In this document: one piece after another, positions 1-15,259 of the stretch
Position numbering within the stretch: the first letter of the stretch is position 1
How the letters are laid out: each line of letters opens with the position of its first letter
Virus record (IMG/VR): IMGVR_UViG_3300010283_000228
Coordinates: 1-15,333 of that record
Reading direction: 5' to 3' (one strand)
Source of the DNA: a virus
Lineage: Duplodnaviria > Heunggongvirae > Uroviricota > Caudoviricetes
DNA length: 15,333 bases
The notes under the pieces: generated by a model
What the model was told of the DNA's origin: nothing
What the model saw: the letters and a program-made list of their open reading frames with translations, nothing else
Databases searched by the model: none
Translations under genes and position numbers: made by a program

Positions 1-85
1 AAAAATGAGCGGATGGGAAACTCTCGAAATGGTTCGTCGATATGCTCACCTCGCACCTAATCACCTTACCGAACACGCACGGTAA
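1..85 (+). CDS. tyrosine recombinase/integrase, C-terminal fragment (5' end lies left of the window)
   Basis: Frame 2 reads KMSGWETLEMVRRYAHLAPNHLTEHAR followed by TAA at 83-85. The LEMVRRYAHL stretch matches the conserved C-terminal catalytic-tyrosine region of phage integrases (established family signature). Only 27 codons are visible, so the family assignment is tentative. Confidence 0.55.
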   Translation, partial: KMSGWETLEMVRRYAHLAPNHLTEHAR

Positions 86-171
86 ATAGATTCGATCCTG
101 AACCCATCGGTCCCAAATCTGTCCCAATAAAAAATAAGGAAGGTATTAGTGATGTGTAACTTATTGATTTA

Positions 172-189
172 AATGGTGCGATAATAGGA
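172..189. other. possible degenerate copy of the tRNA-Thr 3' end (candidate distal att core of the island)
   Basis: aatggtgcgataatagga here versus aatggtgccgataagagga at 15182-15200 (3' end of the tRNA plus 2 flanking nt): matching blocks of 8, 5 and 4 nt with one indel and one mismatch. Seen by eye; could be chance. Confidence 0.25.
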
Positions 190-250
190 ACAAAACACAA
201 ACAATAAATACATTGATGTTTAATGATATTTTCATATTGCATTTTTATAG

Positions 251-273
251 ATACCCCCAAAAGTACCCCCAAT
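251..273. repeat. 23-bp direct repeat ATACCCCCAAAAGTACCCCCAAT, copy 1 (candidate integrase arm-type site at the distal island end)
   Basis: Identical 23-mer found again at 15049-15071 between the integrase start and the tRNA. The repeat itself contains two ACCCCCAA units. The sequence identity is direct observation; the function is inference. Confidence 0.6.
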
Positions 274-773
274 AAATTTTCCCTTATCCCAAACTGTGCA
301 AAAATCGACTCTCTAGCACTCTTTTTCTTCGAGTCTCAACCTCACCAGCACTCAATGATGAAAGGCTGGTGGATGCCCAAGGATAACTACTAGCGTAAAG
401 TATTTTTTAATTTCGCGAGGGTACAAATTTGATGAGGCGGGCAGTCCCGGACAGCCATGGCTACAACGATTTTCCCGCCTCCTCTCCACCGACTACACTG
501 TTATGACACCAGCAGTGCTCACCTTGTGCAGAATTTCTGAACGTCAAGAATGTAGGCCATGATGATATGTGGCGATGCACCGAGTGACGCTGCACATAAT
601 GGAGATTAAATCTAATAATGTTGGTGGTGGAGATGTGAAGAAGGCGACCCGAGTGTTTGTGTGAAATGAATTGATGCCTCTACAGAAATGATTATATAGA
701 TTCAATAACTGGTTAGGTAAGAAAACTATCTGTTCTAAGGATTATGGTTTGAAAATTAAATCATGAATACATT

Positions 774-799
774 AAAAAAACCACCTCATCGAGAGGTGG
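774..799 (-). terminator. rho-independent terminator downstream of the ATPase gene
   Basis: Stem ccacctc (781-787) / gaggtgg (793-799) with loop atcga, flanked on the plus strand by a 7-nt A run (774-780), which gives a U tract after the hairpin on the minus-strand transcript. Lies 44 nt past the ATPase stop. Confidence 0.65.
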
Positions 800-842
800 T
801 TTAGGAGTAACAATAAAATTCTGTTTATAATGGCTTTCAATA

Positions 843-2048
843 TCACATATTCGCCAATCGAATAAAACTCGGCATCCTTGGATCGGTGAACTTATACACG
901 CCTCTACCCAGTCTTTTTATTGTCGCTCCAAAATCCTTTTTAATTAAGCGTCCTGTATAGTTACTCATACTTTGGTTGTTATATCTCTCTCCAGTATCTT
1001 GATATATCTGGTTTATCCATTCTTTAACGCCAAACTCCTCATTTTTAAACTTTGACGCTGAATATAGAATTTTTTTGTACACATCTGTTTTAGATGAACG
1101 AACAGCATCCTCATACTCTCTTCTTAGCCTACCTTCAGCATTCTCAACTGATTTTTCAATTGATTTATGGAAGATTTCAGAATTAATAACTTTGCTTGAA
1201 TCAACAATGGCAGCCTCAGCAGCCTCCTTGCAAAGGAGGTGAGTAAAATATGGAAAGCCATTGCTTATATCAACTATTTGATTTTTAATTTCATCGTCAA
1301 ACCTTAGTCCTAATCCCTTTTCTCCCAGACTGATTATTTCTAACAGATGCTTTTCATCAACCCCTCCCAGACAAACCTCATGCAGGCATCTATTAACAGA
1401 TTCATGCCCTGCCGTAAGGCTTTTACCATCCTTAGAAATTCCCACAAGCAATACTTTCAATTTCGAATTAAAATCGCTCAACTGCTTTATAAACTCTGCA
1501 ACAGCTTTCTTTATATCGTCTTCTAATACATCAAACTCATCTATAACGAGAACCCCCTGAATTATTCCAATAGTCGCTGCTGCCTTTCGAGGAGTTATTT
1601 CATCTCGTTCTATAGTTATTTTTTCTTCATAACCCACGTTACCAGTAAAGAAACTAAAAAACTTTGCAGATAAGCCTGCCTTTATTACTTTCTCTTCCTT
1701 ATACTTTTCCGGGTTTTGTGAGATAAATATTGCACATTCAGAGACGATATCTTTAAATTTAGTGTTAGTATCACACTTCACATTAAAATACTCACCTAAA
1801 AGTACGTTGTATTGCCTGCCACCAATAACTGTAGCATTAGCTAATGAGCTCTTTCCGATTCCTCTATCACCATATATCATACAATGCCTACCAGGAACCG
1901 TTAAATTATCTAAAATACTTCTCACTTCAGTATCTCTCCCCTTTAAATACTCAGGATTAGATATAGGAGTTGAAGGAGTATAATATTTATTCACATCATC
2001 TTTTTTTGCAAATTCTTGTGCATACTCTGCAAAAATATTCACATACAT
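843..2048 (-). CDS. stand-alone P-loop NTPase (AAA+/AAA_16-like ATPase domain with uncharacterised C-terminal region), 401 aa
   Basis: Long ORF with a GGAG Shine-Dalgarno about 6 nt upstream of the ATG at 2048. Translation shows Walker A GDRGIGKSS preceded by an LKGRDTE motif typical of AAA_16-type NTPases, and Walker B VLVIDEFD. Visibly AT-rich compared with the island backbone. Flanked by its own upstream and downstream terminators. Confidence 0.85.
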   Translation of the reverse strand: MYVNIFAEYAQEFAKKDDVNKYYTPSTPISNPEYLKGRDTEVRSILDNLTVPGRHCMIYGDRGIGKSSLANATVIGGRQYNVLLGEYFNVKCDTNTKFKDIVSECAIFISQNPEKYKEEKVIKAGLSAKFFSFFTGNVGYEEKITIERDEITPRKAAATIGIIQGVLVIDEFDVLEDDIKKAVAEFIKQLSDFNSKLKVLLVGISKDGKSLTAGHESVNRCLHEVCLGGVDEKHLLEIISLGEKGLGLRFDDEIKNQIVDISNGFPYFTHLLCKEAAEAAIVDSSKVINSEIFHKSIEKSVENAEGRLRREYEDAVRSSKTDVYKKILYSASKFKNEEFGVKEWINQIYQDTGERYNNQSMSNYTGRLIKKDFGATIKRLGRGVYKFTDPRMPSFIRLANM

Positions 2049-2224
2049 CTCCTTTTCATTAAAAATGATTAACCTACCACTTTCTGTTTTGCAACCGTTA
2101 CAAACTTCTTACGAGACTAAATATTTACGCATATCAAAGGAATGTTACGCACGCTCATATCCATCCCACGCTATCCCATTTTACATGAACATAAGTAAAA
2201 GCTCGCAACATCAGCATCAACAAA

Positions 2225-2243
2225 AAGCCTTACCCGTAGGCTT
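2225..2243 (-). terminator. possible weak terminator between the small ORF and the ATPase gene
   Basis: Stem aagcct (2225-2230) / aggctt (2238-2243) with loop tacccgt, followed on the minus-strand transcript by UUUUUG. Short stem, so low confidence. Confidence 0.35.
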
Positions 2244-2282
2244 AATGTTTGGCTTGGCTGTTGACTTACCGTAACGCTCCGC

Positions 2283-2462
2283 TCACCGTCGTGGCCTGTC
2301 CGGTTTCCGCCACTGATACGGCCTCACATCATCATGCTGGTGGCGTTCCTGTTGCAGCACAACGGAAACAGGCGCTGAACACCTGTTAATTTTGCTTGCT
2401 GGTTGTTTGATTTCGGCAATGCTGCGGATCATCTCCAGCATATCGGCTTCGGTGATGGTCAT
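2283..2462 (-). CDS. small hypothetical protein, 59 aa (below the ORF-track cutoff)
   Basis: Hand translation from the ATG at 2462 gives MTITEADMLEMIRSIAEIKQPASKINRCSAPVSVVLQQERHQHDDVRPYQWRKPDRPRR with TGA stop. AAGGTG lies about 7 nt upstream of the ATG. No recognisable motif. Confidence 0.3.
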   Translation of the reverse strand: MTITEADMLEMIRSIAEIKQPASKINRCSAPVSVVLQQERHQHDDVRPYQWRKPDRPRR

Positions 2463-2470
2463 GATTTACA

Positions 2471-2752
2471 CCTTAGGAAATCTTAGGGGCTGGTTGACAC
2501 TTTCCGGCTTAAGACCTTAACAAATCTTAACATCGCAGGTTGACACACTTGACACTTTTTCGCGAAAAACCTTATCAAACCTTAGCATTTCTGAGCATGG
2601 CAACTTGACACTTTTCGCGATTTTTTCGGCTTTTTGACGAGGTAAATCTGGCGCAAAGCCAGTAACGGCGGGGTTTACAGCGAGGTTGACACTTTTTCGC
2701 GTTCAGAGTGTAAAGTGTCAACCTGGCAAGCTGCTCAACTTGACACTTTTTG
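2471..2752. repeat. array of short repeats: at least six TTGACAC(T)TTTTCGCG units plus one inverted copy, interleaved with three CCTTA-N-AAATCTTA units
   Basis: TTGACAC at about 2494, 2541, 2549, 2606, 2687 and 2740; inverted GTGTCAACC at 2716-2724; CCTTAGGAAATCTTAGG at 2471, CCTTAACAAATCTTAACA at 2514, CCTTATCAAACCTTAGCA at 2570. All seen directly in the sequence. Sits immediately downstream of the wHTH gene and upstream of the 59-aa ORF and ATPase. Confidence 0.75.
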
Positions 2753-2755
2753 ATG

Positions 2756-3292
2756 TCATTGATGGTCTGATTTTTCCCATTCAGCCAGGGCGTTTAGCCC
2801 GGCTTCACTCCATGATTCCAGTTCATCGGGATAATCACCTGCAACATAGCAGAGTTCGCAACGTAGCATACGAATTGCCAGCCTGGCATTACCTCGCAAA
2901 TTGTATTTTTCAAAGTAATGCTGCCCTTCATCATCCTCAAGGCAGATAGCACCATCATCAAGAAAGAGCACTTCCCAGCCTAATTCCCCGGCTGCATACA
3001 GCACACGCTGCTGTATGTCATCGTCCGTTACTGGCGAAGGAATTTTACCGTCTCTGGCCTTAACTGCTTTCCAGAATTCGCCCCACGTCATTTCCAGCGT
3101 TCTTTCTGGCCACATTTCAGAAACGGTGTCTTTCCCTTGTGCCGGTGGGCTGTTCCGCTGCTCTGTCGCCTCCACATCAATTTTTTTGCCAGACATGATC
3201 ACTTCGCCTTTCTCGATCCAGTCGTAAACTGTCTGGCGGCTTACGCCTTTGTATTTGGCGTATTCGGCTTTACTCATCAACATGTAGCTCAC
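2756..3292 (-). CDS. winged-HTH DNA-binding protein with phage Nu1/small-terminase-like N-terminus, 178 aa (function uncertain: packaging-redirection or regulator)
   Basis: GAGGTG Shine-Dalgarno 6 nt upstream of the ATG at 3292. N-terminal KAEYAKYKGVSRQTVYDWIEKG aligns by eye with the lambda Nu1 HTH (KKQLADIFGASIRTIQNWQEQG) and also with the MerR/excisionase-type HTH. Acidic C-terminal half. Confidence 0.8.
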   Translation of the reverse strand: MSYMLMSKAEYAKYKGVSRQTVYDWIEKGEVIMSGKKIDVEATEQRNSPPAQGKDTVSEMWPERTLEMTWGEFWKAVKARDGKIPSPVTDDDIQQRVLYAAGELGWEVLFLDDGAICLEDDEGQHYFEKYNLRGNARLAIRMLRCELCYVAGDYPDELESWSEAGLNALAEWEKSDHQ

Positions 3293-3382
3293 CTCATGCG
3301 TATACGATAAAAAATAATTTCATGCGGAAAGGGAATGCGTTGTGGGTATGGAGGAAAGGGGCAATAACCGCCCCTTACTGAT

Positions 3383-3655
3383 TCAGTTGCGCCAGGATGG
3401 CTGGCTAAGCGTGGTTTTCATTACATCATTGACGACCTGTTTTACGATTTCTGTGTTGGCAGTCGTGCTTTCAACATCAACAAAGCCATAATCGCCAATT
3501 TCCACCGTCAGGGATTCCAGTTTCTTCCCTAGAGCATCAGGCAACTCTCCACTGAACCGGTGCTGAAGATTTTCCACCAGCAACGCCCTGAATGCCTCGC
3601 TGTTCTCTTTTTTCTGCCATAGCTGGCGTTTATCCACTCTGATATTTAATTTCAC
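3383..3655 (-). CDS. hypothetical protein, 90 aa, translationally coupled to the upstream 55-aa gene
   Basis: GTG start at 3655 overlaps the TGA stop of the upstream gene (GTGA), with GAGGTG about 5 nt upstream. Protein-like composition; no recognisable motif. Confidence 0.55.
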   Translation of the reverse strand: MKLNIRVDKRQLWQKKENSEAFRALLVENLQHRFSGELPDALGKKLESLTVEIGDYGFVDVESTTANTEIVKQVVNDVMKTTLSQPSWRN

Positions 3656-3819
3656 AGTCTCACCTCTTTAAGTGCCTTATCCATCAGTTGCCGGGCGATA
3701 ACATGAATCGACGGTGCCACACCAAGCACAGATTTCTGACGCTCTTCGTCCTGGATGCGTTGCAGGGCTTCGATCTGCCTCCGGGAAAGTAAAACTGGCT
3801 TTACTCCGTGATTTTTCAT
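3652..3819 (-). CDS. small putative DNA-binding protein, 55 aa (MKNHGVKPVLLSRRQIEALQRIQDEERQKSVLGVAPSIHVIARQLMDKALKEVRL)
   Basis: Internal ATG of the 107-aa track ORF, with AGAAGGGA Shine-Dalgarno 5 nt upstream. The N-terminal part of the track ORF is Cys/Asn-rich and runs through palindromic operator DNA, so it is judged non-coding. Perfect palindromes lie 20-70 bp upstream. Confidence 0.5.
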   Translation of the reverse strand: MKNHGVKPVLLSRRQIEALQRIQDEERQKSVLGVAPSIHVIARQLMDKALKEVRL

Positions 3820-3838
3820 GATGATCCCTTCTGAATGA

Positions 3839-3891
3839 CAATAATTGCAATTATTGCACAAATTGAAATGATACCAGAGACAATTGCAATA
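3839..3891. promoter_or_regulatory. operator-like palindromes upstream of the 55-aa/90-aa module
   Basis: Perfect 18-bp palindrome CAATAATTGCAATTATTG at 3839-3856 and a related AATTGCAATA at 3882-3891, just upstream of the Shine-Dalgarno of the 55-aa gene. Confidence 0.5.
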
Positions 3892-4097
3892 AATGAAACG
3901 AAAAGCATCAATAAACCAACCTTCGGCACTGAATGCTCTGATTTTTCTGCAAAGGTATGGCAGATGTTGGTGCATGCAAACATAAAGGCAATAGCAGAAG
4001 AAGCTGCGGGGAGTGAAAAGGGGAAGTTTTTATAAATACACGATTGTCGCCTCACTGCAGGTTAACAGCCACAAGCTCCATGATAATAACTTGTTAA

Positions 4098-4421
4098 TTA
4101 TTTCATCAGATTTTTCATTATTTGCGCGATTGAGTACACAAGCAAAAACTCGGCAGCCGCAAGAGTATAAAAAACATAAATTCGCTTAGCCCACCGACGA
4201 TGAAAGAACTCCTCAGCATGGCCGGATGTTCGAGATACAAGCCATGCACCTACTGCACACAGAGCAGGTGCAATGAGCACAGTTATAAACCAGATTGTGA
4301 TGCCCATCCCATGCCTACTGATAATAGCCATTGGTATTGCAAAAATGAATGTTAGAGCAGCATTAGCTAATAGAATATCTTTTAAAGTATTTTCAATTAG
4401 TTTTGCTAGATTATCTTTCAT
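4098..4421 (-). CDS. small integral membrane protein, 107 aa, three predicted hydrophobic helices
   Basis: Three hydrophobic segments of about 20 residues each (ILLANAALTFIFAIPMAIIS, ITIWFITVLIAPALCAVGAWLV, IYVFYTLAAAEFLLVYSIAQIM). TGGGGGA lies 4 nt upstream of the ATG. AT-rich. Confidence 0.65.
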   Translation of the reverse strand: MKDNLAKLIENTLKDILLANAALTFIFAIPMAIISRHGMGITIWFITVLIAPALCAVGAWLVSRTSGHAEEFFHRRWAKRIYVFYTLAAAEFLLVYSIAQIMKNLMK

Positions 4422-4451
4422 CTAATCCCCCACGTTGAACATTAATATATA

Positions 4452-4474
4452 AAAGCCCCTTACTAAGGGGCTTT
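4452..4474 (-). terminator. rho-independent terminator after the lipoprotein gene
   Basis: 10-bp perfect stem aaagcccctt (4452-4461) / aaggggcttt (4465-4474), followed on the minus-strand transcript by UAUAUAUU. Confidence 0.55.
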
Positions 4475-4485
4475 GCACGGATTGT

Positions 4486-5628
4486 TTAAAGGGAACTTTT
4501 TTTCGCCCCTTCAATTTCTGCCTGACAAATTTCGTCATTTGTAAATGAGTACTGCAGATAGACATATCCCTGAGTGGAATTGTTCGCTCTGGCCTCAATA
4601 GATATAGTATCAATATTGTTTTTTAATGGTATTTCTTTTGTTCCCTTCCATGTAGCAGATAAGAAGCGTTCTTTTTTGTTTAGCCCCCTCATCCAGTCCT
4701 GAGGATCTTTCCAAATTGAACCAGCCAGCAAAAAGTCTGTAGTATCAGCCTTTCCATACAGAGAACTTAAAGAATTACTCAATTCTTCAAACTTGGATTT
4801 AAGAGCCAATCCATAGCTATCAGTATCAATATTTTTTCCTAAAGCCCGTATTTGACATAAACCAGCTTTCGGGGAGATCAGCAAACCATACATTTCAAAA
4901 TCTGCGTTTTGCTTCGGTAATTTATCAGAAGTATACAGATTCACACTGTCTGGTAGTGGCTTGAGCTTAGCACCGATCATATCTTCGATGTTTTTCTGTG
5001 TAAGACCGGCTTCTAAGCCAAACGGACCATCCGCTGGCGGGAGTAAAGGAAGTTGCTCTTGGGAATTTTTGGCTGTTACTTCCGTTTCAGTACTGTTTTT
5101 TGCGTCATTAGCTTGTACTGATGCCAGCTTAACTTCAGCGAGGCCATACTTGGCTGTGAGGTACTTTTGCTGCAACATTGCCATGGTCTGCTCTTCAGTG
5201 GCAACAGTAGATAATTTTAGTACCTTTATCAGACCACCACTATACTGACGAGCATCAGCTTTGGCTTCGTTGATTTTTGCATCTAAGCTGTCAATTTCAG
5301 TTTTAATTGAAGCCGCAAGCTCAGGATCAGGTTTTACTCCAGATACAACAACATCAATTTTGGCACCTGATTCAATAGCATTAATACGCTGTTCCAAAAG
5401 CGCTTTATTAGTTCCTAATATTTCCAGTCTTGCTGTTGTCAGATTTTTTATCAACCCACCAGAAAACTGCTGGTCAACTTCCTTAGCTGCTGATATTTCA
5501 CCTTCCGTTTGCGACAGTTCAGCTTTAAGAGCAGCTACTTCCTGTTTCTGTTCTGGAGTTAACTCTTCTGGCCCACATCCGGTTAACATTACTATACCGA
5601 CTAATGTTGCAATTAAAGTTTTATTCAT
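4486..5628 (-). CDS. lipoprotein, 380 aa, with internally repeated SGGLIK-containing module and uncharacterised C-terminal domain
   Basis: N-terminus MNKTLIATLVGIVMLTGC is a signal peptide ending in a lipobox (LTGC). Two related segments, QQFSGGLIKNL and RQYSGGLIKVL, each sit in a charged, helix-prone context. Long protein-like ORF, AT-rich. Shine-Dalgarno is weak (AGGG 2 nt from the ATG). Confidence 0.8.
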   Translation of the reverse strand: MNKTLIATLVGIVMLTGCGPEELTPEQKQEVAALKAELSQTEGEISAAKEVDQQFSGGLIKNLTTARLEILGTNKALLEQRINAIESGAKIDVVVSGVKPDPELAASIKTEIDSLDAKINEAKADARQYSGGLIKVLKLSTVATEEQTMAMLQQKYLTAKYGLAEVKLASVQANDAKNSTETEVTAKNSQEQLPLLPPADGPFGLEAGLTQKNIEDMIGAKLKPLPDSVNLYTSDKLPKQNADFEMYGLLISPKAGLCQIRALGKNIDTDSYGLALKSKFEELSNSLSSLYGKADTTDFLLAGSIWKDPQDWMRGLNKKERFLSATWKGTKEIPLKNNIDTISIEARANNSTQGYVYLQYSFTNDEICQAEIEGAKKSSL

Positions 5629-5762
5629 ATCCCTATTCCAAATGAAAATATTCAGATTAATCTTATCAGGAACCCAGATGCAATTGAATATTCATCTGCT
5701 CAGCAACGTAGTAGATTTCCTCAGAAAGCATCAACAAAAAACCAAGAGAATCCCATCCTCTG

Positions 5763-6050
5763 TTACTGACTACAATTGTTCTTTTTTTGGTATTTCCTGA
5801 ATGCCTCACCATTGGGCTGATGTAATCCCATCCCGGCATGTGCCCGGCTGATGGTTTCGCGCATCTCCCCGAAATTATCCTGCCTTGCTGGTGGGCGTGC
5901 TGCCTTGTGGATACATTCCGCGCGACGTTTTGCCGCCTGTTCCCGTGCCTTGTCATCATTCGCCAGCATGATGACCTCAGCCCACCGCGCCGCCGCTCTC
6001 CGGTACAGACCACGCGCTTCCAGTGCTTCCGCTTTGCTGTCGTGAATCAT
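5763..6050 (-). CDS. PerC/Pch-family-like small transcriptional activator, 95 aa
   Basis: N-terminal AEALEARGLYRRAAARWAEV matches the remembered PerC/Pch signature (A..LE..GLWRRAA..W). ATG at 6050 overlaps the TGA of the upstream FinO-like gene (ATGA). Confidence 0.65.
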   Translation of the reverse strand: MIHDSKAEALEARGLYRRAAARWAEVIMLANDDKAREQAAKRRAECIHKAARPPARQDNFGEMRETISRAHAGMGLHQPNGEAFRKYQKKNNCSQ

Positions 6051-6589
6051 GCGCCTATTGTCTCCTTTGCTGCCCGGCGCTGGCGTTTGCGCTTCTCATT
6101 CAGCGCCACCAGCCGCGTTTCTGCGTCCTGTTGTTCCTGTGGTGTCACCTCGCCGCACGGCTGGCCTTTCAGGTCGTAGCGTACCCCACCAGCCATTAAG
6201 GCGCGGTAATAGCGCGGACACTGCGCATAAGATGCCAGCGTCGCACGCAATGCCCCTGGCCCGAATGCCAGCCCCCTGACGGCGAGATCCTGCATCAGGT
6301 CGTCGAATATCCCCACCTTAAGCGGCTTCAGTGCTTCCCGGCTGAATAAGTCAGGCCACAACTCAGTGAGGCGGTTAACGCGCCTGCGGTTTTTGCGCTG
6401 GCGTTTGGTCATATGCCGCCACGGTGTCGCCCCTGTAGGCTTCTGCTGCGCTTTCTGGTTACCGGGCATCACTTTATGCGCCGATGTGGTTTTATCCTGC
6501 TCCTGTGCCGCCTGCGTCGTTTTCTGCGGCGTGCCGTAAATACCTTTTGGTTTTCTGTTAATGGTCAGCTTAGTCATGCTTTGCCCCAT
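6047..6589 (-). CDS. ProQ/FinO-domain RNA-binding protein, 180 aa (alternative start at 6577)
   Basis: Segment WPDLFSREALKPLKVGIFDDLMQDL...YAQCPRYYRALMAGGVRYDLKGQPCGEVTPQEQQDAE aligns by eye with the E. coli ProQ N-terminal FinO domain ([55 protein letters not shown]). Basic N-terminal tail. Confidence 0.8.
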   Translation of the reverse strand: MGQSMTKLTINRKPKGIYGTPQKTTQAAQEQDKTTSAHKVMPGNQKAQQKPTGATPWRHMTKRQRKNRRRVNRLTELWPDLFSREALKPLKVGIFDDLMQDLAVRGLAFGPGALRATLASYAQCPRYYRALMAGGVRYDLKGQPCGEVTPQEQQDAETRLVALNEKRKRQRRAAKETIGA

Positions 6590-6595
6590 CGTTAC

Positions 6596-6933
6596 AACTG
6601 TCTACCAACTGTCTACCGATATAATTGATTGATTTATTTAATGTTATTAACACATAACAAAAAAACAATCTGCAAACTGTCTACCAACGGTCTACCGCAT
6701 TAATACATTGATAATTAATGATTTTTACTAAATGGTAGACAGTGTAGACAGTTAAAAGAGAAATTTAAAAAATGCCCCCTTAACTATCTGTTTTTTATAT
6801 ACCCCCCGTGGTTTAGGAATATAGAAATAACTGTCTACCTCTCTACCACATTGAAAATATCTTTATAATTCAAAATATTAATTGGTAGATGGTTGGTAGA
6901 GGGTTAAGTGAATCTGTCTACCAACCGTCTACC
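6596..6933. repeat. iteron array (about 12 copies of AACTGTCTACC in direct and inverted pairs) with AT-rich spacers; candidate replication origin
   Basis: Tandem direct pairs at 6596-6617, 6675-6696, 6829-6847 and 6914-6933; inverted pairs GGTAGACAGTGTAGACAG at 6734-6751 and GGTAGATGGTTGGTAGAG at 6884-6900; AT-rich stretches between. Lies immediately 3' of the primase gene. Confidence 0.75.
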
Positions 6934-6960
6934 TTTACGTTTCAGCTTATAAATTTCGTA

Positions 6961-8766
6961 TTATGTTCTGTCGTTAATCCCTGTAGCTGCTGGCAACCAG
7001 CCATCAGCATCATCATCTAACAGAACATTTGTTATCACTCGCCCTTTATCCGGGCCTTTAGTGCATTTAGCCCGCTTATACTCCTTTCCGTATTCCGCCA
7101 TAGCTCCTGGCATATCAGTACCAAAGCGTGTCAGTGATACTGGTTTTCCCAGGCCATGCGCTGACATATAGGCTAAATAAGCATGATACAGGTATCGCCT
7201 CGGGCTAAATGGCACTATTTCCGCATTGCCCACCATCATTCCTTCACATTTAACCAACGACATCAGATAGCCGCAAAAGTCCACCAGTGAATCACCTTCG
7301 CGCTTTATCAACAGCGCTTCTTCTGATTTTTGCTGCTCATAAAGTAGTCTTTTAGCTTCGTCCTGGTCGGTAAATCGTGTTAGCAAATGGCGAATCACTA
7401 CCGCCAGTTCGCCTTCTATCTTTTCCGCCAGCATGGGATCGCGTTCGTTCTCCGGTACGACCTCAGAGAAATTAAATATCACCCTACGACGCGAGATCCC
7501 CCCGCTTCGGTCACTGAATGACATGGCGTTATTGTTTACCGCAAGCACTACTGCCGGAATACGTGTGGAGTAGGGGGCTTTATGTTTCGGATCAATTGCC
7601 ACCTTGTCGCCGCCAGTAATTGCCTTAATTCCTGCACCATCGCCAGCGTAGCGAGTCATATCCGGCATGATAATCAGCGAAAAGCCAACTACTAACGCGC
7701 GTTCCCTTGCGTCTTCCAGAGCCTTCATGCTTGCCGATACTGTGTTGGCCTTACCCGCCAGCATGGTACAAATCTCAGCCATCACACTTTTACCGCTTCC
7801 GCCTGGGCCTGTTACCTCAAGGAATAACTGCCAGTCGTACCGGTTCGCCAGCACCATGAATAATGCCGCCAGTACGCGATCAGCTTTACGATCATTATCT
7901 GCCACCGAACGACGCAGCCACTTCCAGAAATTCGGCGCATGTGTTGCCAGCGTTTCCCCCTCTGCTGGTGGGCTGAACGGTAATTCACTGGCATTTAACA
8001 ACCAGTCATTTTTGTTATGCTCCCGAAAATTTCCCGTCCGGGTATCAAATACCCCGTTACTGAATCCAATAAGATTCCTGTCTGCCCCGCCCATAACAGG
8101 CAGGCTCAATTTCATTGTGTCTACGGCAAATTTAATGGCGTTTTGCGAATAACTGATTCCAGCATCAATAAAAATCTTCGCCATAGACCGCTGGAGTTCC
8201 TTATCAGATACAGGCACCCAGACAATTCCGTTGTAATGGTGAACTACATCAGAATCATCATTTATAGCCAGTGCTCTTCCATAATATTCAAGTAACACTT
8301 CCCCTCTCTGGCTGGCTCCCATCTGATTTAGTGCTGGCCTGGATAGGTCAATATTTTTTGTGGCTAATTTCATCGCTGAAACTTCCCCACTCTCTGCCTG
8401 TTCGCGGATCCGTTGCAGGTAGTCGCGCCAGTTTTCCGGCTCCCGGTCGGTGATACCTTTGTATAATTTCGCGTCCTGTACACCAGCCAGCGCCAGCTTT
8501 TCAGCAATAGCATTGATCTGGATTGGCTCTATCTCCCCCGCGAGATAGACACGTGCAAAGCGGCGTTTCTCGTCAATAATGCGGATATTCGCCAGGTCTG
8601 CCAGTTGCTTTGGCCCCAGATAAACAGGTGGCACGTTATCGCCGTGTTTTCGTCCTTCGCTTTCAATCCAGTGTTGAGCATGGGCGTAAGCATCCGTCCC
8701 GGCAAAAATGATTACCTCGGTGAATTTATCCTTCGGCTGATATTTTAAATTCGGTGCGTTTTTCAC
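6961..8766 (-). CDS. P4 alpha-like phage/plasmid primase-helicase (replication initiator), 601 aa
   Basis: Walker A GPGGSGKS in the C-terminal half. Overall resemblance to P4-family primase C-terminal regions is from memory of that family. GTG start at 8766 overlaps the upstream TGA, with GGGGAGG about 8 nt upstream. Confidence 0.88.
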   Translation of the reverse strand: MKNAPNLKYQPKDKFTEVIIFAGTDAYAHAQHWIESEGRKHGDNVPPVYLGPKQLADLANIRIIDEKRRFARVYLAGEIEPIQINAIAEKLALAGVQDAKLYKGITDREPENWRDYLQRIREQAESGEVSAMKLATKNIDLSRPALNQMGASQRGEVLLEYYGRALAINDDSDVVHHYNGIVWVPVSDKELQRSMAKIFIDAGISYSQNAIKFAVDTMKLSLPVMGGADRNLIGFSNGVFDTRTGNFREHNKNDWLLNASELPFSPPAEGETLATHAPNFWKWLRRSVADNDRKADRVLAALFMVLANRYDWQLFLEVTGPGGSGKSVMAEICTMLAGKANTVSASMKALEDARERALVVGFSLIIMPDMTRYAGDGAGIKAITGGDKVAIDPKHKAPYSTRIPAVVLAVNNNAMSFSDRSGGISRRRVIFNFSEVVPENERDPMLAEKIEGELAVVIRHLLTRFTDQDEAKRLLYEQQKSEEALLIKREGDSLVDFCGYLMSLVKCEGMMVGNAEIVPFSPRRYLYHAYLAYMSAHGLGKPVSLTRFGTDMPGAMAEYGKEYKRAKCTKGPDKGRVITNVLLDDDADGWLPAATGINDRT

Positions 8767-9077
8767 TTCTTACCTCCCCGCTCACGAATAATTTCACGTA
8801 CTGTCCTGATGCGTTCCGCGCCCGTGACGCTCATGATTTTGTCTATGTCGCTTAATTCTGCTGGTGGCGCTTTACTTACCAGGATGAATTCCCTTTCAAA
8901 GCGCATATGTGACGACACGCAGGGATGCGCATAACCTTTGCGGATATAGGTCACGCGAAAATCATCGACGGTTTTAATCGTTATCGTGCCGCCGTATTTA
9001 TCCCGGAAAATATCGCCGGGACGAATTTCAGGCCGAGAGAGACCGCTGACAGTAAAGCCAGAATTTTTCAGTTTCAT
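8763..9077 (-). CDS. hypothetical protein, 104 aa, coupled to the primase gene
   Basis: AGGAAA about 8 nt upstream of the ATG at 9077; stop overlaps the primase start. Protein-like basic composition. Confidence 0.6.
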   Translation of the reverse strand: MKLKNSGFTVSGLSRPEIRPGDIFRDKYGGTITIKTVDDFRVTYIRKGYAHPCVSSHMRFEREFILVSKAPPAELSDIDKIMSVTGAERIRTVREIIRERGGKK

Positions 9078-9081
9078 GGTT

Positions 9082-9282
9082 TTATTTTCCTGTCAGCAGT
9101 TCCGGTTTTATTTCTGCACGAATACAGAGTTCAGAAAAAAATTCAGGAGAACCAACAATCTCATTACTTTTCAGTCGGCGTTGTGATTTCACTTTCCCTT
9201 TATCCAGGTAAACCAGTACGCGTCCGGTGAAATCATCTGGCACATTAAGCACTACGGGTACATGCGCTTCATGATTATGCAT
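9082..9282 (-). CDS. hypothetical protein, 66 aa
   Basis: GGAGGA 8 nt upstream of the ATG; the start lies in an ATGCATAA stop/start overlap with the upstream gene. Confidence 0.55.
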   Translation of the reverse strand: MHNHEAHVPVVLNVPDDFTGRVLVYLDKGKVKSQRRLKSNEIVGSPEFFSELCIRAEIKPELLTGK

Positions 9283-9508
9283 GGCTTACATCCTCCGTGA
9301 ATTTTCTTCTGTAACGCGTCTCTGCCACATATTCCGCATAGTCCGACGCAATACTAAGAATCATTTCACCCTCTGACTTGTAGCCACTGGTATTGATAAG
9401 AAAATATGCAGCTTTCATCATGTCAGCAACGCTCAACAATGCGCCCGCTGCATCTTCCGGTGCGCCATCAAATTCCCGTTTCAGGGAATTAAAACGATCA
9501 TCACGCAT
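9275..9508 (-). CDS. hypothetical protein, 78 aa
   Basis: Chosen start is the internal ATG at 9508 (MRDDRF...), which has AGGGGGG 5 nt upstream and sits 2 nt after the upstream stop. The longer track ORF (start 9586) would overlap the upstream gene. Confidence 0.5.
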   Translation of the reverse strand: MRDDRFNSLKREFDGAPEDAAGALLSVADMMKAAYFLINTSGYKSEGEMILSIASDYAEYVAETRYRRKFTEDVSHA

Positions 9509-9510
9509 GT

Positions 9511-9867
9511 TTACCCCCCCTGAATGACCTGATAACCGCAACTGGTCAGCAATTCGATAAATTCCGGCAGTGTGCCGAAACAGCAATCATCACGCAGACG
9601 TTCGCGGGATACTTCAACGCCGTTTTCGTAGTGACTCACCATGCGTCCGGTAAAATGCAGATCATCATCGTGATGGCACGTTGACGGCTTAATCAGTCGC
9701 GCACGTTCCGCCAGTTCCAGCAATGCTTCAACGCTTCCGGCAATTGCACCATCCGGCAGGTGATAATTACTTACCACGCGTCCATTCTCCACGTTGACCA
9801 GTAGCTGCCCGGAAAATATCTCGTCAAACTGAATGCTGTTAAGGTCAGAAATTGACAGGTTATGCAT
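9511..9867 (-). CDS. hypothetical protein, 118 aa
   Basis: Start at the ATG at 9867 (MHNLSISD...), with AGGAGG 6 nt upstream and the ATGCATAA overlap with the upstream stop. Confidence 0.55.
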   Translation of the reverse strand: MHNLSISDLNSIQFDEIFSGQLLVNVENGRVVSNYHLPDGAIAGSVEALLELAERARLIKPSTCHHDDDLHFTGRMVSHYENGVEVSRERLRDDCCFGTLPEFIELLTSCGYQVIQGG

Positions 9868-10084
9868 GGTGCACCTCCTGTACATCAGCCATGATAATTT
9901 TTCCGGCCTTATCCAGTGCCTGATCGGCTTTCAGCTGCACAAATGCTAAATAATGGGAGATGCATTCTGATTCTCTGGCTGCGTGTTTATGCGCCACACC
10001 AGCGATAGCAGAAATCTCAATAAGTGAATCCATCAGCGTTTTGATAGCGTCTACCGCTGCATCAGGCCATGTTGCATTACACAT
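9860..10084 (-). CDS. hypothetical protein, 74 aa
   Basis: AGGAGGTGG upstream of the ATG at 10084; ATGTGTAA overlap with the upstream stop. Confidence 0.55.
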   Translation of the reverse strand: MCNATWPDAAVDAIKTLMDSLIEISAIAGVAHKHAARESECISHYLAFVQLKADQALDKAGKIIMADVQEVHHA

Positions 10085-10442
10085 GCTCCACCTCCTGGCG
10101 AATACGGGCAGCGAATACCATCACGCAGCCATCAGGAGATTGCTGGCGTGCTTCCTGTTCGCTGGTGGCCTCGATGTGAATCACGCGCGGTTGTGCCGTA
10201 CTCAGGGCGATAAAACGCCAGATAAAATTGTTTTCGCATTTCTGAATAAACAACGTGTTTTCTTCGCGCCCTTTCCATGTTGCCGAGATATAGCCCATGT
10301 CATTGAGCATCTCGCAGGCATCAACCAGCGTATCGGCGGCTACATGAACAGTGTTTTTACCGTCAGCCATGCAATCACGGTGCACCGCCAAGAAGGTGTA
10401 TATAAATTTAGGGTGAGTTTGGGTATGCTGTGCCCCAGCCAT
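10077..10442 (-). CDS. hypothetical protein, 121 aa (first gene of the leftward small-gene/primase operon)
   Basis: Internal ATG at 10442 with GAGGT 7 nt upstream, located just inside the divergent promoter region. It is the C-terminal in-frame part of the 512-codon track ORF. Confidence 0.45.
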   Translation of the reverse strand: MAGAQHTQTHPKFIYTFLAVHRDCMADGKNTVHVAADTLVDACEMLNDMGYISATWKGREENTLFIQKCENNFIWRFIALSTAQPRVIHIEATSEQEARQQSPDGCVMVFAARIRQEVEHV

Positions 10443-11615
10443 AATCGTTACCTCATTTAACGGTTTGGTTAGACGCCCCGCTACTGCCGCAAACAGTTCG
10501 GGGCGTTGTCGTTTATATCCTCTTACTGAGGTGTGATTTAAATTAAATTTAACTGAATCACAGGTCAAGTATTTTTTGTGATTCTTTTTTGTGTATACTG
10601 AATCACATCTTTTGTTTAGGAGAATGCACATGGCAAAAAACACTATCAACGACAAATCAAAACAGATTTCAATTCGTATCCCACATGATGCTTTTGAAGG
10701 CATGGAATCCGTAAAACTGGACGGCGAAAGCAACGCCGGATTCATAGTAACCGCCATGCGTGGTGAGATCGCCCGCCGCCAGGCAGAAGGAAGCGGAGAA
10801 AATCCCCTGGTTTCTTCGCTCAATGCACTGGCGCAGGTGGAAAAAATCGGAGTCAAAGCTGTCGAGGAGATCGGGCAGCTCGTCACCGTCGCACGTGAAG
10901 AACTCCAGCGCCGCAAGGCCAAAGAATCAGAATAATAACTATCATCGCCGTGGTGTGAGGAACTCCGGCGCATTGCTTTACAGGTACACAGAATGACCAA
11001 CAAAGAATCGACCAATACACCATCACCGGCACGGAAAAGACAGCGCAGAAAGATAACGTACGAATATGAGTCAGACAGATTCGCGCCCTGTGCGTTTATC
11101 CTTGAGAAATTCCTTAAAGAGTACAGGCGCACAAAAATGGGGTCGCATACCTGGAAAACATCGCGGCATGGCAATGTTAAAGAGCAGGAATAGCCCACCA
11201 GCAAGCCAACACACTGATCACATTGCCCACCAGCCGCAAATCTGGCATTGTTGGCGATGTGTTCAAGTGTGTAGCTTTCCCACTGGTGGCCCTCTGCGGT
11301 CGCCTTTGTTTTATCCAGAACGAAATTAGACATCAGATTGATCATCACCTTGCGACCTGACAAAATCGCATCAGTCGCGCCACCAGCAAAATTTTTTGCT
11401 TTCCGGACAGCGTGACCAACGACATTTTGCAGCAAAATATTCTGCATTTCTGGCGTGCTGTAGTAACGGTGATCAGCGCCTTCACTCTGTGCGACCACAA
11501 CGCTATAATCTGCCTCGTAGACAGTAAGCAATATGGCGCAGTAGGCTATTCGTTCACAAAGGCGCTCCGGCAACGGGGCGCTTTCTCTTTTTGTAACGGT
11601 CAGAGCGTTACACAT
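10077..11615 (-). CDS. 512-codon open frame; real translation start at 11615 but middle section probably not a genuine protein
   Basis: ATG at 11615 has GGAGGA upstream and the same ATGTGTAA stop/start overlap as the other coupled genes. The first ~140 codons look protein-like. The middle ~250 codons are Ser/Cys/Arg-rich and run antisense through the RHH gene and the AT-rich promoter region. No in-frame stop before 10077. Confidence 0.3.
   Translation of the reverse strand: MCNALTVTKRESAPLPERLCERIAYCAILLTVYEADYSVVVAQSEGADHRYYSTPEMQNILLQNVVGHAVRKAKNFAGGATDAILSGRKVMINLMSNFVLDKTKATAEGHQWESYTLEHIANNARFAAGGQCDQCVGLLVGYSCSLTLPCRDVFQVCDPIFVRLYSLRNFSRINAQGANLSDSYSYVIFLRCLFRAGDGVLVDSLLVILCTCKAMRRSSSHHGDDSYYSDSLALRRWSSSRATVTSCPISSTALTPIFSTCASALSEETRGFSPLPSAWRRAISPRMAVTMNPALLSPSSFTDSMPSKASCGIRIEICFDLSLIVFFAMCILLNKRCDSVYTKKNHKKYLTCDSVKFNLNHTSVRGYKRQRPELFAAVAGRLTKPLNEVTIMAGAQHTQTHPKFIYTFLAVHRDCMADGKNTVHVAADTLVDACEMLNDMGYISATWKGREENTLFIQKCENNFIWRFIALSTAQPRVIHIEATSEQEARQQSPDGCVMVFAARIRQEVEHV
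10533..10607. promoter_or_regulatory. divergent promoter region with two operator-like inverted repeats TGTGATT-N16-AATCACA
   Basis: TGTGATT at 10533 and 10578, AATCACA at 10556 and 10601, giving operators centred about 45 bp apart. A TATACT -10-like hexamer at 10594-10599 overlaps the second operator, upstream of the plus-strand RHH gene. Confidence 0.5.
10630..10935 (+). CDS. Arc/CopG-type ribbon-helix-helix DNA-binding protein, 101 aa (candidate island repressor)
   Basis: TAGGAGA Shine-Dalgarno 6 nt upstream of the ATG at 10630. KQISIRIPHDAFEGMESVKLDGE followed by SNAGFIVTAMRGEI fits the strand-helix-helix pattern of Arc-like repressors. Coiled-coil-like C-terminal half. Only plus-strand gene in the island, directly after the operator repeats. 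Confidence 0.55.
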   Translation: MAKNTINDKSKQISIRIPHDAFEGMESVKLDGESNAGFIVTAMRGEIARRQAEGSGENPLVSSLNALAQVEKIGVKAVEEIGQLVTVAREELQRRKAKESE

Positions 11616-12456
11616 GGCTGTTTTCCTCCATGCGACGGGCTAACCAACGCTGCGAAAGACGAATTAATTCAGCTTTCCGCTGGTGGTAGTCCAGGCCTAA
11701 CTCAATCAGCGTGATATTGCTCTGCTCAAGGTAAGAAAGGTGCTCAAGCTGCAACGTGCTCATGTGGTCGCGTGGTTCGCCTGTGATGCCGTTCGCCTGC
11801 GTCCACTGTTTTGCAGTCATGCCACCCAGCACGATACGCGCCAGCATATTGGCTTCCGTGGTGTAGTGGTGCTGGAGTGTGTTTTTACCCAGTTCAGCCC
11901 GGTACGCCTCCAGCGCGGCACACATCGGCTTAAAGTAGCTGGCAACGGAGATACGGGCTTTCAGTTCCCGGCGTAACGCTGCGGAACGCACTGGCGCTAC
12001 CTTGTGTAGCTCCTCCTCGCATTTGATGAAGTACTGACGAACGGCGCGGCCCTGTTCGGTGCGCTCGACCATCGCCAGTTCTTTCGCCATGTTCGTGGAG
12101 ATCAAATAGTCTTCACTGCGACGATCACCGCCGCGCTTTGTTGTCCAATCAAAATCAAACTGTTCAATATTTACACTTTGGTTCCCCCGTTTCGGGGAAT
12201 CAAAGTACAAATTATCTACAACTTCAAAATCCACGCCCTTTTTAAATCCGTACTCATCAATGCGTCCTTTAATCCAGGTTGTGAAATCACGCTTCACACC
12301 CAGCGCCTTATGCAACGCTCTGGCGCTAACAATATTGGTTTCACGTCCGCCAATAACGCCGGAAATAACCGGGATAATTTCGCCGAAATTTTGCAGATTC
12401 TGGTTTTCAGGCCGAACGAAGCCCTGCCCCTGTACGGGCGTTTTTCGCTGTTTCAT
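11608..12456 (-). CDS. phage antirepressor-like protein (AntA/Bro-N plus KilA-C-like regions), 282 aa
   Basis: AGGAG 5 nt upstream of the ATG at 12456. SARALHKALGVKRDFTTWIKGRI and later NMAKELAMVERTEQGRAVRQYFIKCEE resemble remembered antirepressor-domain signatures. Confidence 0.75.
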   Translation of the reverse strand: MKQRKTPVQGQGFVRPENQNLQNFGEIIPVISGVIGGRETNIVSARALHKALGVKRDFTTWIKGRIDEYGFKKGVDFEVVDNLYFDSPKRGNQSVNIEQFDFDWTTKRGGDRRSEDYLISTNMAKELAMVERTEQGRAVRQYFIKCEEELHKVAPVRSAALRRELKARISVASYFKPMCAALEAYRAELGKNTLQHHYTTEANMLARIVLGGMTAKQWTQANGITGEPRDHMSTLQLEHLSYLEQSNITLIELGLDYHQRKAELIRLSQRWLARRMEENSHV

Positions 12457-12534
12457 AAAAACTCCTGCTATCGAATTAAGTTACTTTTTATTTGCTGGTG
12501 GATAGTTGGGGCTTCTGGCCCCGTAGCCATTTAA

Positions 12535-12732
12535 TCAGGTAGCTGTTCCGCGTGATTCCGCAATACGCTGATTAATCCACTCGTCAATTTCACTCTCAAC
12601 GAAAGCAATAGCTCGCGAGCCAATTTTAACTGATGCAGGAAATTTACCTTGCCCCATAAGGCGATAAATCCATGCCTTGCTATATCCAGTTCTACGCTGA
12701 ACTTCCGTTAAACGAATAAGAGAGTTTGCCAT
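12535..12732 (-). CDS. alpA: AlpA-family prophage transcriptional regulator, 65 aa
   Basis: MANSLIRLTEVQRRTGYSKAWIYRLMGQGKFPASVKIGSRAIAFVESEIDEWI is the characteristic AlpA-type HTH. AAGGTGA 4 nt upstream of the ATG. Confidence 0.85.
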   Translation of the reverse strand: MANSLIRLTEVQRRTGYSKAWIYRLMGQGKFPASVKIGSRAIAFVESEIDEWINQRIAESRGTAT

Positions 12733-12987
12733 ATATTCACCTTGTAACGTCTATAAAGGTGTACATAGCTTGCATTAAGAAAAGTGATATTTATAGATGC
12801 TTACCATTATGAATGGCGAATACCATTTCAGTGAAATAGCTCCACCTTTTTTTAATAATGGCGTTTACTATTTTAAGTATCATGCTGACGTGAAACACGA
12901 AGAAAAATTACTGTTCTTACGATTTAATCTGCATTGGTGGTTACTTTTTTTTGAAAGGAAACCACCATTTTTCTGGAATAGCGACCA

Positions 12988-13704: not shown

Positions 13705-13802
13705 ATTCTCCCCCTTCAAGCGGTCTAATGTTAAGGCCGAGCCAGCTCTGTTTGCATCAGCCTTTTTAGGTGCTCAAAGTCTACTACTGTATACTCAACC
13801 AG

Positions 13803-15017: not shown

Positions 15018-15048
15018 TTGGGGGTACCTCCACTAAACCGAACAGCAA

Positions 15049-15071
15049 ATACCCCCAAAAGTACCCCCAAT
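15049..15071. repeat. 23-bp direct repeat ATACCCCCAAAAGTACCCCCAAT, copy 2, with nearby inverted GTACCCCCAA-like copies; candidate integrase arm sites
   Basis: Identical to 251-273. Inverted partial copies TTGGGGGTAC at 15018-15027 and TTTTGGGGTAC at 15082-15092 flank it, between the integrase start codon and the tRNA. Confidence 0.6.
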
Positions 15072-15183
15072 TGACTGTAGATTTTGGGGTACTTAAGTAG
15101 ACGTCAAAAGACTAAAAGGGGCATTAATATACTGATTATAAGAGGTTTTTAAATACTTTAGTAGACTTGGGGAGACGTTAGAA

Positions 15184-15259
15184 TGGTGCCGATAAGAGGA
15201 GTCGAACCTCCGACCTTCGCATTACGAATGCGCTGCTCTACCAACTGAGCTATATCGGC
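15184..15259 (-). tRNA. thrW: tRNA-Thr (anticodon CGU)
   Basis: Reverse complement reads GCCGATATAGCTCAGTTGGTAGAGCAGCGCATTCGTAATGCGAAGGTCGGAGGTTCGACTCCTCTTATCGGCACCA: 7-bp acceptor stem, D arm, anticodon loop TTCGTAA (anticodon CGT), T arm GGAGG/TTCGACT/CCTCT, 3' CCA. The thrW symbol is assigned because CGU is the thrW anticodon in E. coli. Confidence 0.9.

Follow-up and report, generated by a model that had tools for sequence, protein, structure and literature searches.

One of the closest described systems to the one reported here is formed by the Rpp proteins (RppA/B/C) and the PICI cosB of cos-type E. coli phage-inducible chromosomal islands (PICIs), EcCICFT073 among them (Fillol-Salom et al. 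2019, PMC6739421). How Gram-negative PICIs with neither terS, rpp nor a helper cos are packaged is a question raised for the islands at thrW by the authors of EcCIMP1, a thrW PICI whose induction and transduction by the P22-like phage Kapi1 were shown experimentally and whose packaging mechanism they described as unknown (PMC11773190). Here we describe a locus in IMG/VR virus record IMGVR_UViG_3300010283_000228; the window, as used below, is the whole stretch analysed (positions 1 to 15,333 of that record). The 15,333-bp window is a PICI-type phage satellite of ~15 kb from Escherichia coli, with thrW as its site of integration. The locus consists of a minus-strand gene for a 175-amino-acid (aa) protein, named HTH175 (2756-3283), an untranslated spacer of ~290 bp filled with repeats, referred to as the array (2464-2755), and a small open reading frame (ORF), orf59 (59 aa, 2283-2462, minus strand). 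Judged from their sequences, HTH175 and the array on balance probably form a pac site of composite build, for which the satellite supplies the specificity protein itself.

The terminal part of EcCICFT073 is ordered capsid, decoration and hypothetical genes, cosN (cos1), rppA, an inverted cosN (cos2), a 93-aa ORF and chromosome; its rppA encodes 144 aa, in agreement with the published length. The end of the island in the window is ordered HTH175, array and orf59. The N-termini of orf59 and the 93-aa ORF after cos2 are 45% identical (E 5e-5) and the two proteins share the ending W(K/R)KP(E/D)R.RR. This kinship, together with the gene order, suggests that HTH175 and the array replace rppA and cos in the same slot, a position at which cos is also found in other PICIs (PMC10111431). 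Neither rppA nor lambda cosN was detected in about 45 HTH175 loci. The genes immediately upstream of the module in other islands are often kin to helper head or tail (morphogenesis) genes. Strain A17 and one further locus (L156) carry upstream a DUF2213 head-protease-like gene, 54% identical to a Rac-SA53 head gene, together with another fragment of that phage protein, while in another group of islands tape measure, baseplate hub and spike genes occupy this position.

An earlier examination of the window, made from the letters alone (the sequence-only reading), had noted a dense repeat array beside a Nu1-like protein and proposed a cos-like packaging or redirection site. The repeats were confirmed. 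TTGACAC occurs seven times in the window, six times directly and once inverted, with all copies inside 2494-2746, compared with 1.8 expected, and none of 200 shuffles reached seven copies. On the sense strand the site has the form (A)nGTGTCAA(C/G), and the full site on the gene strand is (C)GCGAAAAAGTGTCAA(C/G). The longer unit that had been read around the heptamer, TTGACAC(T)TTTTCGCG, holds for part of the sites: it is present at 2549-2555 and 2686-2692 (both plus strand, with the extension TTTTTCGCG) and at 2605-2611 (plus strand, with the extension TTTTCGCG), and the plus-strand site at 2740-2746 matches it at 81%, whereas those at 2494-2500 and 2540-2546 (plus strand) share the core alone. 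The inverted site at 2715-2721 (minus strand) pairs with that at 2740-2746. Two degenerate copies were also found, TTTACAC at 2465-2471 (plus strand), 3 nt from the orf59 start codon, and GTGTAAA at 2708-2714 (as read on the plus strand); in some genera these GTGTAAA/TTTACAC variants stand in for GTGTCAA. The sites start 10 nt 3′ of the HTH175 stop codon, are irregularly spaced (9 to 81 bp between TTGACAC copies) and end 3 nt before the orf59 start codon.

Interleaved with the TTGACAC sites are the three CCTTA..AAANCTTA units of the sequence-only reading, likewise confirmed, which share CCTTANNAAANCTTA (three occurrences, at 2471, 2515 and 2570, compared with 0.12 expected). They are CCTTAGGAAATCTTA at 2471-2485 (plus strand; sense-strand form TAAGATTTCCTAAGG), CCTTAACAAATCTTA at 2515-2529 (plus strand) and CCTTATCAAACCTTA at 2570-2584 (plus strand), the last lying inside the terS-like segment described below. 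A central block without TTGACAC (~2612-2685; core GCCRTTACTGG) is conserved in the arrays of Escherichia, Raoultella and Pantoea and, in the E. coli genomes and viral contigs searched, was present only in these islands and never in prophages. The array has a GC content of 40-51%, and its RNA fold z-score of -2.35 is accounted for by the inverted repeats. The DNA gave no phage match, and the contig ends and terminal repeats of viral-contig copies yielded nothing on DNA ends. Further copies of the half-site TTTTTCGCG lie at 2693-2701 and, shortened by one T, at 2612-2619, and a perfect 14-nt palindrome, TTTTTCGCGAAAAA (2556-2569), bridges the terS-like segment and the next TTGACAC site. We propose that the array is the packaging-initiation (pac-like) region of the satellite.

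Known packaging sites were also sought in the window. Lambda cosN and P2 cos, allowing up to three mismatches, gave matches at chance level, none of them near the array, and the cos-like site was therefore discarded. The resemblance of the TAAG units to the P22 pac (GAAGATTTATCTGAAGTCGTTA) was also at the level of chance, with a score of 9 in a scan of the whole window compared with maxima of 10-14 in random (shuffled) sequence.

The ORF listed for HTH175 begins at 2756 and runs to a GTG at 3292, which corresponds to the 178-aa protein of the sequence-only reading. That ORF exists, but all homologues in the family alignment begin MLMSK, so that translation most likely begins at the ATG at 3283, for a protein of 175 aa. 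In the AlphaFold (AF2) model from 36 homologues (predicted local distance difference test score 87), a winged helix-turn-helix (HTH) of the Nu1/excisionase/MerR type (aa 1-44; 3152-3283, minus strand) is joined through a disordered linker (aa 45-57) to an alpha/beta domain at the C-terminus (aa 58-175; 2759-3112, minus strand; compact over aa 60-170), which is variable and has no family match. The recognition helix, GVSRQTVY(D)W, is near-invariant across genera, as are the first 42 residues; the C-terminal domain falls below 40% identity at the extremes and in some proteins is swapped out altogether. Homologues of 528 bp are labelled 'hypothetical protein' or 'MerR family transcriptional regulator' in RefSeq, and the sole Pfam match was a sub-threshold one to HTH_17 (residues 6-31).

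The best phage-family match of HTH175 in PHROG is phrog_57, 'terminase small subunit', over residues 1-42 (E 1.7e-6). All 36 family members match phrog_57 (best E 8.8e-10), with Cox-like and excisionase families next. For calibration, the lambda-like TerS of a CFT073 prophage was used; its full-length match (4.7e-65) identifies phrog_57 as the Nu1 family. The Nu1-like HTH of the sequence-only reading was thus right at the level of the domain. RppA, a proven redirecting protein, also has phrog_57 as its best PHROG, again over the HTH only (aa 7-47, 3.9e-8), and the island AlpA goes to excisionase families and not to phrog_57.

The likeness to a small terminase ends with the HTH. HTH175 covers positions 11-57 of the 199 in phrog_57, compared with 11-189 for a true lambda-like TerS, and a Foldseek comparison with PDB and viral models matched the HTH only and revealed no TerS-like fold for aa 58-175. 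Identity as a TerS was rejected on this HTH-only profile match and on the lack of an oligomerisation or TerL-binding domain, an adjacent terL and a phage homologue; phage records held no HTH175 homologue, and plasmids a single weak, HTH-only match. Membership of the Rpp family, to which the protein was also to be compared, did not hold either: the BLASTP alignment is confined to aa 2-33 (29% identity, E 0.05), the probability given by hhalign is 30%, the C-terminal fold is different, and a PDB sequence search with HTH175 returned neither 6HLK nor 6HN7.

The HTH head also occurs outside this arrangement. In Lelliottia wanjuensis (L013), three paralogues within 4 kb (2386-2514, 4192-4320 and 6001-6129) have the conserved 43-aa head joined to different C-terminal parts of at least 260 aa, with no TTGACAC array directly 3′ of them. 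Their sequences suggest that the HTH head is a module that may have been recombined onto different effector domains.

Homologues of HTH175 are found in Escherichia, Citrobacter, Pantoea, Serratia, Rouxiella, Raoultella, Klebsiella, Enterobacter, Yersinia and other genera. The module is present in 170 of 5,426 complete E. coli genomes (~3%) and in at least eight other genera; it is always chromosomal (none of 193 places was on a plasmid), with up to four copies per genome, and always lies beside a cargo hotspot with defence or virulence genes. In species-representative genomes retrieved by protein similarity, GTGTCAA/TTGACAC clusters begin right after the stop codon of the homologue in Escherichia ruysiae, Rouxiella, Raoultella, Buttiauxella and Pantoea. 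Since an earlier, motif-seeded set of viral loci was biased for the motif, it was excluded, and enrichment was calculated anew from viral-contig collections, on 59 loci that were protein-seeded, non-redundant and drawn from several genera. The 400 bp 3′ of the gene contained 217 motifs in these loci (9.2 per kb) and the remaining 753 kb contained 23 (0.03 per kb), a ~300-fold enrichment 3′ of the homologue. At least two motifs were present in 50 of the 59 loci, in which the position of the array was conserved. This linkage persists from genus to genus, even where overall protein identity is as low as 38%, with the recognition helix invariant; the few loci without the exact motif have GTGTAAA or GCGTCAA variants and an unchanged helix.

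The inverted pair corresponding to 2715-2721 and 2740-2746 follows the stop codon in most homologous loci. Its spacing varies between 20 and 45 bp among lineages, which is easier to reconcile with flexibly linked monomeric heads than with the operator of a rigid dimer. On comparison of these sequences, the array is very probably the binding site of HTH175, although the co-conservation of protein and sites is not proof of binding. The module is accompanied by primases of 46-99% identity, by a RepA-type helicase and by unrelated integrases and attachment (att) sites, indicating that its movement is independent of the remaining island. One cluster of the motif that lacks HTH175 was encountered in an unrelated viral contig (L126, 2300-2620), where TGTCAAC/GTTGACA iterons directly follow a primase-helicase gene. 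It was set aside as an unrelated TGTCAAC-iteron origin beside a primase; similar heptamers thus serve as iterons elsewhere.

A protein that binds such repeats could be a regulator of the MerR/excisionase type, with the array as its operator, controlling orf59 and read-through into the cargo or forming a roadblock where the late operon ends. The HTH fold is common to BldC and Cox, regulators which bind repeat arrays, and the array stands directly ahead of the terminator and the variable cargo, with sites coming within 3 nt of the orf59 start codon. There is, however, no sigma-70-like promoter in 2150-3450, HTH175's own gene has no upstream sites, and in many loci the array is kept without orf59 or any cargo after it. 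The names given to homologues by the Prokaryotic Genome Annotation Pipeline, PGAP ('MerR family transcriptional regulator' for some copies), and in one UniRef entry ('Repressor', for a Pantoea homologue) point the same way as the fold does, but at least seven sites over 290 bp and in both orientations are unlike a MerR operator, and the helper terS-derived inserts described below would be left unexplained. We regard transcriptional control as an unlikely role for the module. Assignment to the MerR family was rejected: Pfam MerR was matched by one of 36 members, HTH175 matched HTH_17 below threshold, and the seven sites are dispersed, with no promoter-like site, whereas MerR regulators have a long dimerisation helix and an effector domain after the winged HTH and act on one palindromic operator within a long-spacer promoter.

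Iteron-like repeats and a heptamer that contains the -35 consensus TTGACA would also be compatible with a second replication origin, a partition (centromere-like) site or stacked -35 elements, the alternatives named in the sequence-only reading. That reading had already attributed a separate iteron set to the primase, which was borne out: about ten copies of AACTGTCTACC, in both orientations, surround an AT-rich core (24% GC) at 6596-6950, beside the primase gene (6961-8766, minus strand) and separate from the array. The array itself has no AT-rich core, with the GC content given above, and is unchanged beside primases of 46-99% identity and a RepA-type helicase. No partition NTPase accompanies it and none of the 193 places is on a plasmid, and no TTGACA has a -10 partner, in line with the result for sigma-70 sites in 2150-3450. 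None of the three was upheld, and as a group they are very improbable.

The similarity of the HTH to those of Xis and Cox raises one further identity, that of a recombination directionality factor (RDF) acting on an attachment-site arm. All sites lie at least 2.3 kb from the att core (180-189), with variable cargo between, and unrelated integrases accompany the module. AlpA, needed for excision in the related EcCIMP1 (PMC11773190), is encoded by the island itself, and a protein of 175 aa with a second domain is unlike RDFs, which are small single-domain winged HTH proteins. An RDF role is hardly credible on this evidence.

The composite pac site is further suggested by helper terS-derived sequence within the arrays. 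Some module-bearing satellites interrupt a myovirus-type prophage in its major head gene, an arrangement that PMC10111431 describes as 'helper-embedded', and for these the helper is known from the embedding. A comparison of an embedded satellite with its helper head region (11 x 8 kb) gave one outstanding match, 18 nt exact (CCAGATACGAAACCGATA, E 0.006), shared by codons 88-94 of the helper terS and a stretch of the array that two TTTACAC-type sites enclose. Its 15-mer core occurs at least 120 times in viral contigs, 62 of these in TerS genes of the helper's family, with protein identity as low as 64%, and four in HTH175 arrays. The 15-mer is present in 28 of 28 distinct protein-seeded terS genes, where it belongs to an invariant 18-nt window within the variable linker region. 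A shorter form, ACGAAAC(C/G), is located a few bases before the inverted site in the arrays of Rouxiella, Raoultella, Buttiauxella, Pantoea and a Klebsiella-type clade.

Three loci lodged in the major head gene of a myovirus-type prophage (L172, L186 and L217; viral contigs 2767802164_000005 and 2636416123_000001) encode an integrase and a primase together with their own tape measure, baseplate hub and spike genes, which are 52-69% identical to those of the helper. A satellite with tail and baseplate genes is unusual.

The array of the window was compared with four phage regions, of which the best match was 15 nt exact in the terS of Rac-SA53 (E 0.004), the phage to which the DUF2213 gene had also pointed, a length reached by 2% of mononucleotide shuffles. 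The match falls within a terS-like segment (2561-2605, minus strand) located between two TTGACAC sites, which copies part of the Rac-SA53-type terS, codons ASRLIRNDKVFR, and is the proposed helper pac mimic. On the gene strand, 2561-2592 reads AGAAATG[CTAAGGTTTG]ATAAGGTTTTTCG, which corresponds to AGAAATGATAAGGTTTTTCG of Rac-SA53 (codons RNDKVFR) plus a tandem duplication of 10 nt, and the segment matches the Rac-SA53 terS at 20/20 positions across the duplication. The unduplicated form is found in nine of the loci compared. That of L093 aligns with the Rac-SA53-type terS over 33 columns with 28 matches and one gap (~33 nt copied); without gaps it scores 20/22, compared with 15/22 for the next best position across the 14-kb locus. 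The CCTTA..AAANCTTA units are thus at least partly repeats of this terS-derived sequence. In P22, pac is inside gene 3 (terS), ~89 codons in (P22 record annotation), and by analogy we infer that the copied terS segments may represent helper pac sites.

Rac-SA53-type terS-terL genes are present in 85 of the 5,426 complete E. coli genomes. Five of the ~58 listed island-bearing accessions (A17, EC11, U90, ETEC4090 and JNU) are among the top 60 of those carriers, compared with ~0.7 expected, in a rough count based on partial lists that include related strains. Strains A17 and EC11 are the two in which the co-occurring island carries the DUF2213 gene. The sequence-only reading had suggested looking for the repeats in candidate helpers; the Rac-SA53 packaging region and the terS region of the embedding prophage contain no TTGACAC clusters. 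Kapi1, the helper of EcCIMP1, has no motif cluster and no match to the array.

The terS-derived segments could in principle suffice, the array being a passive mimic of the helper pac that is read directly by the helper TerS, with HTH175 and the TTGACAC repeats serving an unrelated role such as interference or regulation. The presence of these segments in the arrays fits such a mimic, and, according to a preprint abstract, Vibrio PICI-like elements (PLEs) can depend on pac mimicry alone (bioRxiv 10.1101/2024.04.22.590561). A passive site is nevertheless quite improbable, given that the mimic segment is always bracketed by TTGACAC sites, which the helpers lack, and that, from genus to genus, sites and HTH keep their joint position even if a different segment is inserted.

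For a composite pac site with its own specificity protein, the following sequence of events is envisaged. The Nu1-type winged HTH of HTH175 would bind the (A)nGTGTCAA sites, and the flexible linker would allow C-terminally associated subunits to reach irregularly spaced sites in both orientations. These sites flank a sequence copied from the helper terS, which would act as the helper pac. The resulting nucleoprotein complex may then draw the helper terminase to satellite concatemers, with headful packaging starting there, and the variable C-terminal domain would be the likely contact with the helper TerS or TerL, setting helper specificity. Titration of the terminase could, more speculatively, also interfere with the helper, as Rpp does.

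Several findings weigh against this interpretation. The TerS of the embedding helper belongs to phrog_370 and is not of the Nu1 type, so that the Rpp mechanism, a TerS-Rpp hetero-DNA-binding domain (hetero-DBD), is not simply transferable. The C-terminal domain resembles no terminase-interacting domain, and the HTH fold is common to excisionases, Cox, BldC and MerR, so that repeat binding alone does not imply packaging. Helix and motif are both invariant, which leaves no variation for a covariation test. The segments derived from terS have little length, several of the locus sets include related sequences, the count of co-occurrence is rough as stated, and EcCIMP1, a proven related satellite, has neither HTH175 nor the array. 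The sequence-only reading is thus supported in part: the DNA-binding head is of the lambda Nu1 type, the array is very probably its binding site, and the slot shared with rppA and cos and the terS-derived inserts point to packaging or redirection, whereas a cos site and a TerS or Rpp identity of the protein are not supported.

With its terS copy inside the array, the module probably represents a new way of satellite packaging. As a more tentative generalisation, HTH175 may typify a novel class of packaging specifiers, widespread among satellites of the Enterobacterales, in which a Nu1-like head is joined to an orphan adaptor domain and a TTGACAC array surrounds a stolen piece of helper terS, recruiting headful terminases of unrelated families. 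If true, it would provide a mechanism for many 'Type C' Gram-negative PICIs without a recognisable packaging module and would be the first Rpp-like system for pac helpers. As a packaging determinant, the module would explain the high-frequency transduction of defence and virulence cargo, the terS insert would be a sequence-based predictor of prophage-satellite helper pairs, and the ~0.8-kb unit of protein and site could make plasmids packageable by headful phages.

The remainder of the window is that of a Gram-negative PICI. The left att core, GATAATAGGA (180-189), repeats the core in the tRNA-Thr gene thrW (15184-15259) on the right side, and the island therefore spans ~180-15200. The minus strand encodes an integrase, AlpA, an AntA/B antirepressor, DUF4222, a D5_N/DUF5906 primase, ProQ/FinO and PerC, after which several small or membrane proteins precede HTH175. 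The long leftward operon is closed by a terminator-like hairpin (2225-2243, minus strand), beyond which lies variable cargo, an nSTAND NTPase (nSTAND1/AAA; 843-2048, minus strand). The integrase, AlpA, primase-replicase with origin, unidirectional genes, specific att site and size within ~10-20 kb are all features of these islands, and the island has no structural or lysis gene set and no terL. An Rfam scan of the window found the tRNA and no other RNA element.

The island of the avian pathogenic E. coli (APEC) strain E123 is otherwise 98.7% identical and carries GapS1 in the position of the nSTAND NTPase. The cargo hotspot is located between the terminator after orf59 and the att end; strain A17 has DUF3800 there, other islands have other genes, and it was also seen at 2809-4407 of L001. 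A boundary sequence, CGCTCTAAGTTACAGTTG, is conserved ahead of the variable cargo in many islands. At the left end of the window (1-189), nt 1-85 encode the C-terminal end of another tyrosine integrase and are followed by the att core, which places the island in tandem with a second island; in related strains this neighbour is the Vat-encoding island.

An intact 512-aa ORF with an ATG start (10077-11615, minus strand) is 99.8% identical in APEC E123 and partly conserved (33-44%) in Serratia loci; it has no Pfam match, and RefSeq calls small genes in its place, some on the opposite strand (Icd-like, YlcI/YnfO). A 380-aa putative lipoprotein (4486-5628, minus strand; signal peptide then Cys) and a 107-aa membrane protein (4098-4421, minus strand), encoded between PerC and the HTH175 module in a subset of islands only and also without a family match, may have surface or exclusion functions. 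A 55-aa ORF (3652-3819, minus strand; 10666-10827 in L017) has a ribbon-helix-helix (RHH) look by reading of its sequence and no family match. It is the sole gene of the post-primase module common to EcCIMP1 (62% identity), is also present in most HTH175 islands, and may be a conserved regulator of that module.

Compared with EcCIMP1, the island of the window has the same att site and att core (TCCTATTATC) and a related integrase (96% identity), AlpA, AntA, PerC and small RHH-like ORF. EcCIMP1 differs in having another primase, followed by ejection-protein genes, and in lacking HTH175 and the array. Excisionase, Cox and BldC winged HTH proteins are the best structural matches for the DNA-binding domain of HTH175 and also bind short repeat arrays. 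They are, however, single-domain proteins of 50-90 aa that act on contiguous, helically phased repeats near att sites or promoters, whereas the sites described here are irregularly spaced (9 to 81 bp) and far from att.

The N-terminal winged HTH of lambda gpNu1 is of the same sequence family, and the R sites of its cosB are, like those of the array, several short sites of which one is inverted relative to the rest. By contrast with gpNu1, HTH175 has no match beyond position 57 of 199, lacks the oligomerisation and gpA-binding part, has no adjacent terL or cosN, and is associated with seven to nine sites in place of three. The Vibrio PLEs (Boyd & Seed, bioRxiv 10.1101/2024.04.22.590561), as described in the abstract of that preprint, likewise combine a helper pac mimic with satellite specificity factors, GpsA and GpsB. 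The proteins, the host and the helper type (the lytic phage ICP1) are unrelated, and no TerL inhibitor was recognisable in the island.

Rpp, too, shows a close resemblance. Each system has a satellite protein of ~140-175 aa whose one recognisable part is a winged HTH of the lambda Nu1 type, phrog_57 being the best PHROG and matched over the HTH only. The gene stands at the 3′ end of a PICI operon, beside a cis packaging site and followed by a small terminal ORF that is related between the two systems, and the recognition site belongs to the satellite alone and is not found in the helper. HTH175 differs in having no homology to Rpp past ~30 HTH residues (29% identity, hhalign probability 30%) and in its alpha/beta C-terminus, where RppC has a helical coiled-coil dimeriser (a three-helix domain). 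The window has no cosN or cosQ, and the sites lie 3′ of the gene and not between cosN and the gene. The known and candidate helpers of HTH175 islands have small terminases that are not of the Nu1 type, which makes a TerS-Rpp hetero-DBD unlikely for HTH175. The module would differ from the known means of redirecting helper packaging in its new protein family, its new composite site design and its helpers, which are apparently of the pac type. By analogy, it would work like Rpp with cosB, or like GpsA/GpsB with the PLE pac mimic, but with another protein family and site design, and it appears to be of the pac and not the cos type.

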